A DNA stretch of 64,000 bases, taken from contig OX597815.1 in assembly GCA_951406725.2 (NCBI GenBank), positions 95,604,001 to 95,668,000 on the forward strand, in the 5' to 3' direction. Source of the stretch: Octopus vulgaris (lineage: Eukaryota). Position numbers and translations under genes: made by a program. Shown here piece after piece: positions 8,820-41,539 of this stretch. Numbering within the stretch: the first letter of the stretch is position 1; the number at the start of each line of letters is the position of its first letter. The notes under the pieces are model-generated. The model had not been told where the DNA came from. It did no database searches and was given only the letters and a program-made list of their open reading frames with translations.

Positions 8820-9840
8820 AAAATTGTTATCGTAACCGTATACTTGTTCTGCTTCTGATTCCTGCTCTGGAATCCCCTTCGAAAACAGTCAGATATTCTT
8901 TATTTTATTCACTTTTTCACATTGAATGTTATCAAGTGTGACTCCGATATTAAAGACTGATCAGTCGACAGATCAGATATATGTCGAAGACTGTTACACC
9001 TGTGCTGTACAGTCGATGCGGTGTAATGAGAAGAGTAGAGCGCCAATTGCATGATATGTTGTGAAAGATGTATGGGTTTTCCCACTCCCTTGTTCTACCC
9101 TTCCTTTTACTGGCTTCTGAATACCTTTACAATATCTTAATCTACAGTTCATTATTCGAGGTACAAGAACTTTCTAGAAAAGCATTCCCTATTTCCCCCA
9201 AAAGCAACGATAAATGAAAAATCACACTCACTATGTGTTTCTATGCAGATTGCTGGATCTTGAATTTCTTATATCTTGAAGAATGAGGTGTGATACCATA
9301 CTGTGTTTTCTCTTTACGCTCAGAAAGTTGGCCCCACATTTCATAAACTTTCACCAGATGCGCAAAAATACATGTCATCATAGATCGGAAATGACTTAAG
9401 AAATTACCAGAGCATGCTCCCAAACGTTGTTCTTTCAAATCGGTTGTCCATCGTTGAGAAACTGGATTTACACTCGACTTTCGATAACAAATATCTTCCA
9501 CTATCTGCTCTAATGCTTTCATGCCAAATTAAAACAGTATAATAAGCTCCATATTTTGACTCCTCTGTCCGTGCGAATCAGTTCGTCCACTTACAGATGG
9601 TTCGTGTCCGTTGTTGATCTTTGGTACCTGTATGCAATTCTTTAAATTCTTCATCTATCTGCGTTGATCTCGTCAGAGGAGTCGTCACACAAACAAATTT
9701 TTATATTATTCGTATATCGGGTTGCTAACATCGCTTATCCTTCATCAGCCTAATTATGGCACGTTGCTTTTGCACAGAACCAACTATTTTGCAGTCAATG
9801 AAGAACAAGAAAAAATCGTTATAAAAGAGTTTTCTCTACC
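8820..9840 (-). mobile_element. mariner transposase pseudogene
   Basis: Minus strand reads VDELIRTDRGVKI, ALEQIVEDICYRKSSVNPVSQRWTTDLKEQRLGAC (LGYRK..RWVP..LT..K..R motif) and PHSSRYKKFKIQQSA*K (SP..KKFK.Q.SAGK motif). Confidence 0.7.
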
Positions 9841-37885: not shown

Positions 37886-38688
37886 TGTTCAGTAGTGGCC
37901 ATAATATAAGGCTCAGTAACGACAAGTGTATATTGAATTATAACAGATTAACAAAACTTTGAGACTAGATATTTCAGATATATTAAGATACATCTAATAC
38001 TCTTTTACTCTTTTACTTGTTTCATTCATTTTGACTGCGGCCATGCTGGAGCACCGCCTTTAGTCGAGCAAATCGACCCCGGGACTTATTATTTGTAAGC
38101 CTAGTACTTATTCTATCGGTCGCTTTTGCCGAACCGCTAAGTGACGGGGACGTAAACACACCAGCATCGGTTGTCAAGCAATGCTAGGGGGACAAACACA
38201 GACACACAAACACACACAGACACATACACACACATATGTATACATATATACGACAGGCTACTTTCAGTTTCCGTCTACCAAATCCACTCACAAGGCATTG
38301 GTCGATCTGGGGCTATAGCAGAAGACACTTGCCGAAGATGCCACGCAGTGGGACTAAACCCGGAACCATGTGGCTGGTTAGCAAGCTACTTTATTTCAAA
38401 ACATTTGCCATAAAGGCAGTACACAGATTAAGTTAGCTTTGCGGGCTGGACGAGGACATTAATGAGGTGAATGATAATGAAAGAAAGATGATAAGGATGG
38501 GAGAAGACAGAAAGCGCCCGCCGACTTTTGCTTCTCTAAAACATTGTTCTTTTTAAAAAAGATTAACACAAAACGAGGTATTAAACCTCTTACAATTTTT
38601 CCAATTTTGGGCTTAGCAGTCCATTATTAATACAAAACGAGGTATTAATCCTCTTACAATTTTTCAATTTTTGGACTTAAGTCCATTA

Positions 38689-39933
38689 CTAATAATACAT
38701 ATCGTCCTCGAAATAGCTTGTGCCCGCGCCCTCCACCATCAACCACGCCTCCCTCAGAACGTAGTCAAGTTCCGAGTTCGCGTCGCCCGGGACCAAGTTA
38801 TAGTCTTCATTGAGCTCCTTTAGCCCTAGCGTCACGTCGAACGCCACGGCCTCCACAGCTACCTGCGGAGGCCATTCGGGGTCCTGTGTGAAGGCTAAAG
38901 GTGCTCCCTTGTAGTGCTCTTCCATCACTTTTTCAATTTCTCCTCCTCTATAGAAGAGGACCAATACATTCAGTTCTTTCGTTGGCGGCACAGTTTCCGC
39001 CAACGGTATTCCTTCTCTTGTCGGTGGCACAACCCCAACCGACGTAGTTCCGCAACATTCCGGTGCCACACTGACAGCCGGCAACGTCCCGTTTTTCTTC
39101 CTCTTTTTCTTTTTTTTTCCCTTTTCAACTGAGGGAGGGTGCGTCTCCTCCGTGGCTGGAAGATTCGCCCTCCTCTCCTCATCCCTATTATCCTTTGGTG
39201 AGCACCCATTGTTGCTCACCTTCCTCTTTCGGCCTCTGCTTGAGGAGTCCTCTGCTTTCTCGGCCGTTATCGTTCCCTCTTGTAGAGGGGTTTTACTTAA
39301 CTGTTCCGGGATCCTATTTTGTTCCCGAGGACAGTTCTTCTTTATGTGGCCGGACTCCAAGCACCGATGACACTTAGGGGGGCGACCCTCAAGCATCACC
39401 GGGTACCTGCACCCGGCCATTTTCAAAAAATCTGGAAAAACCAGATTGGCTGATTGGGTCCACAGGATCAAAACTGCTTTCGAGCCAACCCAAGCAGCCG
39501 CAGGAAGAACTTTTACATTGAGGAGCTTAGTTTCGCTGTCACCCAGACCCCGGCGGATAGTCTCCTCTATCCACTCGGGTTCTATGTCGGGTGGCAGTCC
39601 GCAGATCCAAGCTTTCATCAATTTCTTTTTTTTGTAAGTGGGCAGGAATAAGATTTCCTTACCCTCCAAGGGTTCGCTAGCAAATTTGCAAGCCTCTTCA
39701 GGGGTGTCAAACAGCAACCACACCGTTCCATATTTGACACCCCTGGAAATGAATTTAATTGTTGGCAAATACTCCTCCAACTCCTCCTCTATTGCCGTCT
39801 TTTCGAATAGGGCGATGGTGTCAAGTGCCTTGGAGTATGTTCTCAACACCACCGTCCTATCTTCACGGTCCTTCAACTACTTTTTGGGTGGTATGATTTC
39901 CCACTCCAAAACTTTGTTATTTTTCATTGCCAT
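38689..39933 (-). CDS. gag-like LINE ORF1 protein (putative RRM-like N-half, CCHC zinc knuckle, basic low-complexity tail); one in-frame TAG at codon 19
   Basis: ATG at 39933 gives MAMKNNKVLEWEIIPPKK*, in frame with the 395-aa ORF 38689-39876. Motifs are AWICGLPPDI, YPVMLEGRPPK-CHRCLESGHIKKNC (C-x2-C-x4-H-x4-C) and NLS-like RGRKRK / KGKKKKKRKK. Confidence 0.85.
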
Positions 39934-40579
39934 GTTTTTTAAAAAATATATTCAAATTAGACTCAAAAGCAGGAAGAAAAAAGTTCAAAAGTCTAAATAA
40001 ATTTGATAGATTTTTGAAAAAACAAAAAGGAGAAAGCACAACAGAAGGGAAGAAATTAACGGAAAGTCGCAATAAAGAAAAAACAAAGGGGGGGGGGGGG
40101 TAAATGAAATTCAAAAGAAAGTTAATAAACAGAAAAAACACAGCAAAAATATTCTGGCCTTGCGGTACTCCCGGCCTGGGTTGAACCTGGAACACCGCAA
40201 CTGCAACACAACCTCCACAAAAAGGTCCGAAAGGTAATCCAATAGTGGCTTATTTTTATACTTTTCTTGCGAAGTACTCTGACAAGGGAATAAATTCAAC
40301 AAATCCAAACACAGCACTGGCTACCGCCAACGGTGATTTTAACAGTAACTGTATTGAATTCTGAGGATACGCCCCTCCACTGTTTTTTCTTTTTTTTTTC
40401 AATGAACACAAAAACGGCAGCCGCCTAGAGCAGGCGAAATTGTCTCAGAGTTGGACACAACTTACTGAAATAATAATTGGCACGCAATAAATTATGCCCA
40501 ACTCACAATAAACAAAATCACTTACCTCGACAACTTTCCGTTTTTTGTCTTTTTTCTTTAATTGGACGGAGCTAATTGA

Positions 40580-40620
40580 CTCGCGTCCACTCTCGCTGAA
40601 CAGGAAGCAACTGACTAATT
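40580..40620 (-). promoter_or_regulatory. Putative internal Pol II promoter (Inr plus DPE-like) of the ORF1-only element
   Basis: Minus strand TTAGTCAGTT near the element 5' end, with GGACG about 25-29 nt downstream. Confidence 0.45.
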
Positions 40621-41539
40621 GCGCATGTGCGTTAGCAAGCTACTTACCACACAGCCACTCCTGCGCCTATAATATCTATATTCCGTAAACATTTCAAGTG
40701 AATGAATTAGATATTTCGTAAGTAAGGAGAAAATAAAGAAATATCCTTCCAAACTGCCACGGCCAAATGTTCAGGGTCTCTTAGAAAAACAATGAAAAAT
40801 AGAACAAGAACAAAAAAGAAACCCTTCCTATTAATATTTTGTGAACATCCATTTACTATTAATGGCCTCCTGACGTCCGTTGCCACAAGACTGAATGAAT
40901 TTCTTGCAAGATGATGGGGTAATATTGTTCTATTCGCTTTTCAACAATTCCCAGCGTTCATCGTGGTTCTTTATATTTCTCCTTCGCACCTTATCTCTAA
41001 CAATCTTCCAAACGTTTTCTATTTGGTTGAGATCCGGAAAAGATAAAATGCAAGTTGGCCTGAGCGAGATTGATATTCAGAATGCAATGCGCTTGAAGAA
41101 ATGCAGCGAAGTTTCTCTCTACTTGTTTAACTATTCATCTAGGTTTCTGCATTGTGATAGATAGTGATGTGATAGGCTAGATGGGCCTCAAAACTCAGAT
41201 TACTGTTTGAGTGGCGGTTGACATTTCAAGTACATGGAAAATGTATGGGAAAAATGAAATGAAGAGGGCACGATAATAAACAAGAATTTCAATATTTTGA
41301 GCTCCCCTATATTAGTAGGCCTGTGTGATATTCGTATAGGTTTACTTCTACAGGTGGTCTCCAAATTTGCCAATCGTTGAATTTCAAGTTCACACTGATG
41401 ACGAAAAGGCACATGTCACTCCCAACTTATTTTCTGGAATAAACGGGCACCCCTGTGCCTATTCTCTCCCTTTCCTAAAATAATCTGCCTTTTCAATGGC
41501 TCACTGGAGATGAATACTTCTTCAACATCATTGAAGAGT

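Follow-up and report, generated by a model that had tools for sequence, protein, structure and literature searches.

Within a 64-kb window of the Octopus vulgaris genome (the window being the whole stretch of DNA that was analysed, 64,000 nucleotides), a unit of 2239 nt with a single open reading frame is enclosed by two exact copies of a 15-nt sequence, and the question that this locus raises is what kind of element the unit is and how it could have been inserted. An earlier note had read it as a recently active, non-autonomous, ORF1-only element, placed in the L1/Tx1 group and dependent on a second LINE. We found that the core of this reading is supported, and the partner LINE was identified; the note did not recognise the SINE as target, the arrays or the sister families, nor did it see that ORF1 stops prematurely and that the 15-bp repeat stems in part from the element. 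In our view the unit is, with high probability, a full-length member of an ORF1-only family whose copies occupy one fixed base of a tRNA-like SINE head, and it was likely inserted by the endonuclease and RT of a full-length Tx1-type LINE found at the same base.

The unit in the window

A scan of the 64-kb window located the 15-mer GTTAGCAAGCTACTT at positions 38377-38391 and 40631-40645 and at no further site, even when two mismatches were allowed (chance mean 0.12), which bears out the exact 15-bp duplication described before. Read on the minus strand, the 2239 nt between the two copies consist of a 5' UTR of about 697 nt (earlier given as 700 bp), one ORF and a 3' UTR of about 297 nt, and a reading-frame check found no RT or endonuclease frame in the unit, in agreement with the earlier claim. 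The features are listed in the order of the minus strand.

40646..40667, minus strand: 5' piece of the host tRNA-like SINE head; the insertion point lies directly behind its A-box-like motif
40631..40645, minus strand: 5' copy of the 15-nt repeat, likely a 9-10 nt target duplication plus an element-encoded target-like leader
38392..40630, minus strand: ORF1-only retroposon, family A, full length
39934..40630, minus strand: 5' UTR; some subfamilies carry other 5' UTRs instead
38689..39933, minus strand: ORF1, 414 codons, from the ATG at 39933 to the stop at 38689, with a lysine-rich C-terminal half
ORF1 residues about 15-103 and 100-185: predicted RRM-like domains
39328..39375, minus strand: CCHC zinc knuckle of ORF1, residues 187-202
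38392..38688, minus strand: 3' UTR with a 64-nt tandem duplication (38562-38679), without poly(A)
38406..38418, minus strand: 3' hairpin with a 4-bp stem and a 5-nt loop, 14 nt before the element end
38377..38391, minus strand: 3' copy of the repeat, which is the original SINE sequence at the target site
38000..38391, minus strand: remainder of the host SINE (B-box-like motif, body and short-repeat tail)

Judged by the box consensus, we take 40647-40657 to be the A-box-like motif and 38350-38360 to be the B-box-like motif of the host SINE. ARAGORN detected no tRNA gene in the window, and when the element was compared with Rfam neither a ribozyme nor any other structured RNA was found. The 3' UTR is short, as stated previously, but the AATAAA at its end is composed of the terminal AATA of the element and the first AA of the target, and no poly(A) follows. 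The description of one ORF with a CCHC knuckle is correct, but ORF1 of the window copy is broken by an in-frame TAG at codon 19 (39877-39879), where 37 of the 38 sequence contexts examined have TGG.

A young family of full-length copies

The earlier note had proposed a search for 2.2-kb copies of the same structure. In the species' own genome (2.8 Gb) we identified 31 full-length copies among 40 candidates scored, with 95-100% identity, and these establish a family. All 31 are about 2.2 kb long and none has room for ORF2, so that a one-off deletion from copies that carry ORF2 can be set aside. The last 24 nt of the element gave 217 exact matches in the genome and the reversed control gave none; the unit is a member of a young family with at least 200 copies, sampled by exact matching that favours young ones. 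Forty regions were fetched by their 3' end, 24 from the first 30 3' ends by position and 16 hand-picked from later ends, and 39 of them hold a unit of 1.9-2.3 kb with its 5' junction at the target site. Beyond these 40 regions, one copy is a 106-nt internal deletion and one is 5'-truncated and has no SINE head.

Among the 30 best family A copies, 14 have an unbroken ORF1 of 414-416 aa. The non-intact copies examined are broken by stops or by frameshifts near A runs, and some of these breaks could be assembly errors. With its own conserved ends and its amplification as a family, the element behaves as ORF1-only non-autonomous LINEs of the HAL1/HeT-A/Ag-Sponge type do.

One base in a SINE head as target

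The SINE that carries the insertions has box-like motifs, 71,412 exact heads and a short-repeat tail. Its head found no match in Rfam, and the sole tRNA match at locus L001 (25 bits, below the cut-off) lies elsewhere than in the SINE head. The 3' end of the element abuts the same SINE base in 30 of the 30 best family A copies, and again in all 30 of the 3' ends that come first by position; as the queries held no flank, the shared target site is not a selection artefact. At the 5' end, the 30 best copies start behind the A-box-like motif (26 copies), behind another element (three) or at a small deletion (one). Genome-wide, 593 exact target sites are filled versus 71,412 empty ones, and at the same base of a second SINE head variant 107 are filled versus 4,250 empty. 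Among the first 30 filled sites, 18 have an ORF1 within 1.5 kb of the end, five an ORF2 and seven neither, and among 12 filled loci of the second head variant a related ORF1 was found in seven, an ORF2 in one and neither in four. Different TSDs among copies, which had been expected, do not occur, as insertion is site-specific in this family: nearly the same repeat occurs at every copy.

A shared site could also go back to one ancestral insertion, with SINE and insert travelling as one composite and no repeated targeting, and we regard this as very improbable. It would account for the same flanks at every copy and for the correlation between element and SINE-flank distances (Mantel r=0.43, p=0.009), which could itself reflect age or partial co-movement. 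However, the SINE flank is five times more divergent between copies than the insert (7.7% vs 1.5%, 29 copies), which argues for separate insertions. The composite also fits poorly with the SINE variants TAAC, TTAC and TTTAC among the targets under an unchanged leader, with the filling of the second head variant, and with the unrelated cargoes found at the same base, namely two partner subfamilies, several ORF1-only families and pieces of 51-106 nt.

The 15-nt repeat and the 5' leader

The "perfect 15-bp TSD" has to be revised: the repeat is exact, but it is not a TSD of a random site, being part of the SINE head. Only about 9-10 nt of it are likely to be derived from the target, the rest being, to judge from sequence comparison, a target-like stretch that the element encodes. 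Past about position 10, the 5' copy agrees with the element subfamily and not with the target. TAAC is retained on the 5' side in every one of the 17 TAAC-leader copies that sit in TTAC-type targets, and in another subfamily 13 of 15 copies begin with a leader of their own, CTTCTTAC. The leader is thus subfamily-specific and, by this token, element-encoded. Four short or 5'-clipped copies (L091, L200, L230, L232) have a duplication of 9-10 nt, and in L002 a target variant at position 7 is present on both sides. Of 11 target variants at positions 2-9, only two reappear on the 5' side, so that even these first 9-10 nt could have been templated by the RNA or have mutated since the insertion. That the repeat of the window copy seems perfect is due to a chance agreement between its SINE and the leader.

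The partner LINE

Directly behind one family A copy we found a LINE of 5.43 kb with Exo_endo_phos, RVT_1 and zf-RVT domains. It has 24 full-length copies at 98-100% identity, and its 3' junction lies at the same SINE base in 24 of 25 loci, the alignment of the 25th having stopped internally. Ten of the 25 loci have an unbroken ORF2 (1133 aa), and three have both ORFs unbroken. A second partner subfamily, whose intact ORF2 is 93% identical, forms the middle unit of a triple array just past the end of the window, with an ORF1-only unit on either side, and its endonuclease domain matches that of L1 (E=1.5e-10). The partner ORF1 has a CCHC knuckle, and its RRM was recognised by alignment to the modelled family A ORF1. 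The combination in ORF2 of an APE endonuclease, an RT and a C-terminal zinc finger, together with the target specificity, is that of Tx1 elements, and a type I ORF1 (RRM + CCHC) is consistent with Tx1 according to the accessible part of PMC5203782. Judged by domain order, the type I ORF1 and site specificity, the partner appears to be an L1/Tx1-group LINE of Tx1 type; the matches of its RT contained unnamed RT proteins only and no named Tx1 reference.

The partner, family A and the sister families have a common 3' end, made up of a 4-bp hairpin, a short spacer and AATA. The stem variants TGTC/GACA and CGCC/GGCG are compensatory, with pairing kept. The similarity between the 3' ends of family A and the partner extends over about 36 nt (78%), with E=0.065 taken alone, and the 3' 60 nt of family A fold no better than shuffles (z=+0.44).

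ORF1: fold, relatives and selection

In the window unit Pfam recognised only the CCHC knuckle, below cut-off, and no Transposase_22 match was found in ORF1. AlphaFold, run on 52 sequences, modelled residues 1-211 with a mean pLDDT of 84.6. Foldseek with this model returned tandem-RRM proteins first (E about 1e-4), and in VIA-align each half of the model matched an RRM (Z up to 8.9, rmsd 2.5, 79 residues aligned). ORF1 is therefore modelled, by predicted fold, as a putative RRM-RRM-CCHC protein of type I. A PDB sequence search with ORF1 matched the CCHC knuckle and nothing else, and no LINE ORF1 structure was among the fold-search matches listed.

Among the ORF1-only families A, B and C, ORF1 identity is 54-66%, whereas to the partner ORF1s it is 21-27%, which indicates an old, separate lineage; for the family A ORF1 and that of the partner LINE, values of only 25-29% were obtained, which speaks against a close tie between the two. 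Between six representatives, dN/dS over residues 1-205 was 0.10-0.30 in all 15 pairs, a check on ORF1 that had been suggested before, and dS between ORF1-only families exceeded 1, with synonymous sites near saturation. For the C-terminal half dN/dS was 0.22-0.63. Shared variants in 19 intact family A ORFs were 17 synonymous to eight non-synonymous (p=2e-6 against site counts). Singleton variants in intact family A ORFs also leaned towards synonymous (33 to 37 non-synonymous), partly because only intact ORFs were counted. These substitution patterns show purifying selection on ORF1, in family A as well as in the older ORF1-only families.

The shared target and 3' end would also be expected if the family had arisen from the active partner LINE by recent internal deletion, with ORF1 as a passive leftover, and at locus L234/L238 an ORF1 nearer to that of the partner (39%) is indeed present with no room for ORF2. 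This origin has very little probability for family A, given that the ORF1-only families share 54-66% identity among themselves but only 21-27% with the partner ORF1s, that their synonymous sites are near saturation at low dN/dS, and that a protein of another octopus species, Octopus sinensis, has 74% identity to ORF1 over the N-terminal 211 residues.

The purifying selection, and a predicted fold that resembles host tandem-RRM proteins, would agree with a processed pseudogene or with a domesticated host gene that codes for an RRM/CCHC protein. We nevertheless give this origin next to no credence, as hundreds of dispersed copies lie at one site without poly(A), and family A ORF1 shows homology to that of the LINE found at the same base (29% over 196 residues, E=1e-24). 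A match to a spliced host gene, which the earlier note had set against its own reading, was not obtained: the relatives are LINE ORF1s. Weaker relatives occur in O. bimaculoides, O. vulgaris and Argonauta, as unnamed or CCHC-type cephalopod proteins.

Sister families and arrays

Several older ORF1-only families occupy the same SINE base. Within a single SINE, members of families A, B and C and the partner follow one another head-to-tail in mixed arrays of 2-4 units. Another unit stands in front in four of the first 30 copies by position, versus a site occupancy of 0.8% (binomial p=1e-4). The six dimer partners need five changes on the family-A tree, four of which are forced by well-supported branches; this scatter implies that arrays arose repeatedly. 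A fixed B+A dimer that moves as a unit was considered and found no support. The 3'-most array unit often has the nearest relative, and upstream families are poorly sampled. The arrays fit both sequential re-insertion and serial priming on a second RNA.

A model for insertion

The family is probably a HAL1/HeT-A-like parasite of a SINE-targeting Tx1-type LINE. The most likely route is target-primed reverse transcription by the partner ORF2 on RNA packaged by the element's own ORF1; that the partner acts in trans is suggested by the shared site, the shared 3' end and the arrays. The element would be transcribed, and its own ORF1 protein (RRM-RRM-CCHC) would be made and package its RNA. The partner ORF2 would recognise the 3' hairpin and AATA end, nick the SINE right behind the A box and prime reverse transcription there, and the second strand would be cut about 9-10 nt downstream. 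As the 5' leader of the RNA repeats the target, the end of the cDNA could anneal to the overhang, which would make insertion precise and nearly always full-length. Each insertion would leave target-like sequence at both junctions, so that further units could stack head-to-tail. The A and B boxes of the host SINE would end up 2.2 kb apart, and that SINE copy should then be silenced.

A wider picture is offered tentatively, and we would sooner doubt than accept it as a whole. The locus may belong to a long-lived system of three tiers at one promoter base, namely the SINE, a Tx1-type LINE that cuts the SINE, and an ORF1-only radiation that outnumbers the LINE about 3-4 to 1. The built-in target copy might both seal full-length insertions and re-create the landing site, ORF1 may act on behalf of the partner in the way that HeT-A Gag does for TART, and single multi-template events may have built the arrays. 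If true, a telomere-like retrotransposon partnership would have moved into a dispersed SINE, inactivating the SINE copy by copy.

Relation to known systems

Where papers are cited below, the comparisons draw on excerpts of them. HAL1 has a type II ORF1 (Transposase_22) and a poly(A) tail and is not known to be site-specific. The octopus family, with no Transposase_22, an RRM-RRM-CCHC model and no poly(A), is not HAL1 in the strict sense. As in HAL1, the octopus elements encode ORF1 only, are non-autonomous and form their own lineage in the L1/Tx1 group (PMC5753468, PMC5786205), but HAL1 is described as derived from the L1 clade, whereas the octopus family has a type I ORF1, no poly(A) and one fixed base. 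The likeness to HeT-A beside TART seems closer: HeT-A is an ORF1/Gag-only element that has a target in common with the RT-encoding TART/TAHRE and forms same-direction head-to-tail arrays (PMC5537684), and ORF1-only coding, a shared target and mixed arrays recur here. HeT-A, however, is in this account Jockey-derived, adds to chromosome ends and serves the host, while the octopus family uses an internal site in a dispersed SINE, with arrays of 2-4 units.

Target-specific Tx1 elements include Tx1L in Tx1D, Tx1-Mar and SINEU in Mariner-N4_AMi, Keno (U2) and Kibi/Koshi (PMC4494074), and also Dewa and Mutsu (PMC3706591). The targets named in the excerpts of these two papers are DNA transposons, LTR elements, snRNA and 5S genes, a tRNA spacer and microsatellites, and none is a SINE head. 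The octopus system resembles them, as there described, in a preference set by the endonuclease, often for another transposon, and in non-autonomous passengers that share the target; their passengers are non-coding, whereas those in octopus encode a selected ORF1. Dada elements insert in true tRNA genes, at the A box (PMC8869645, PMC3706591), and the octopus insertions likewise lie at or beside a Pol III A box of tRNA-type sequence; from what these sources report, Dada are DNA transposons, in contrast to a retroposon in a tRNA-like SINE. For Drosophila R1A/R2, target sequence at the RNA 5' end was proposed to anneal the cDNA to the cut target and give precise 5' junctions (PMC2718515). By analogy, such annealing may apply to the octopus leader with its 5' target homology; in the excerpted R1A/R2 work the homology is to flanking 28S rDNA and a small deletion is made, whereas the octopus leader is element-encoded and duplicates downstream target sequence.

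ORF1-only LINE derivatives are already known, being listed from the Jockey, L1 and CR1 clades in the accessible part of PMC5786205, and so are Tx1 LINEs that target other transposons and have non-coding passengers. A 2026 repeat annotation of O. vulgaris gives counts only for 13 recently active L1-Tx1 families, with no mention of their target in the text available (PMC13282606). We found no published ORF1-only Tx1 derivative or SINE-head target in the literature searched, although Repbase, Dfam and the Zenodo library of PMC13282606 may hold them. The octopus system joins the ORF1-only habit to Tx1 targeting; new beside these are the SINE promoter that is hit, the strict precision to a single base and the fact that most insertions are full-length. 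As intact young copies of passenger and partner exist, the old question of why ORF1 is kept when a SINE needs none becomes testable. The system also provides a natural case in which 5' target homology makes LINE insertion precise and full-length, and its many young insertions at a defined site could serve as markers in octopus populations.

Sequencing runs

In the best sequencing runs of three organisms, 41-67% of the sampled element words were present. Three runs, of an RNA type that is only guessed, cover the element, and they are given no weight as evidence for expression. Joins of empty sites in the runs can stem from any SINE copy and are therefore not taken as a sign of polymorphism at this locus. 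One run of guessed RNA type yielded a contig of 2083 nt, with TGG at codon 19.

Exchange and reduction among the ORF1-only elements

Based on the regions fetched from the O. vulgaris genome, we observed that the ORF1-only families (family A, to which the window copy at 38392-40630 on the minus strand belongs, and its relatives B and C) exchange modules. At seven loci (L035, L139, L143, L146, L149, L150 and L166), 5' UTRs were swapped between families, and chimeras combined the N-terminal half of the ORF1 of one family with the C-terminal half/3' UTR of another. The ORF1 of L234/L238, which lies within 1.4 kb of a filled 3' junction, matched the ORF1 of the partner Tx1-type LINE at 39%, in comparison to 27% for family A. 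L234/L238 is possibly a second origin of the ORF1-only form, or else an internal deletion. Very small derivatives were also identified (L108/L185, L200, L230 and L232), all located at the family-A target base, namely a unit of 106 nt composed of family A's 5' and 3' ends, and 3' pieces of 51-96 nt.

A triple array (L209 and L152) is located on the contig of the window at 95,670,400-95,680,500, starting 2.4 kb beyond the window end, with the following units:

Unit 1: family-C ORF1-only unit
Unit 2: second partner subfamily, with an intact ORF2 of 1133 aa
Unit 3: older family-A copy, followed by SINE body

Other features in the window

40531-40645, minus strand: 5' leader and the sequence just downstream, which could pair into a long stem
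From 50330, plus strand: unrelated open frame of 877 codons
About 447 and 35675, plus strand: two further target SINE heads, empty and more decayed

The potential stem of the window copy was weak (z = -1.7, equalled by 11 of 200 shuffles). The 877-codon frame is probably part of another LINE.

A second SINE

Additionally, a second, very common SINE was found on the minus strand of L040 (about 9600-9720) and at about 25 further loci. Its last ~70 nt are shared with the 3' end of the partner LINE (alignment score 72, against a maximum of 51 among 1000 shuffles). This SINE may owe its mobilisation to a related LINE of the Tx1 type that has a target of its own. The sequence after the second SINE is often GGTAT or another head of this SINE, the latter giving tandem copies.
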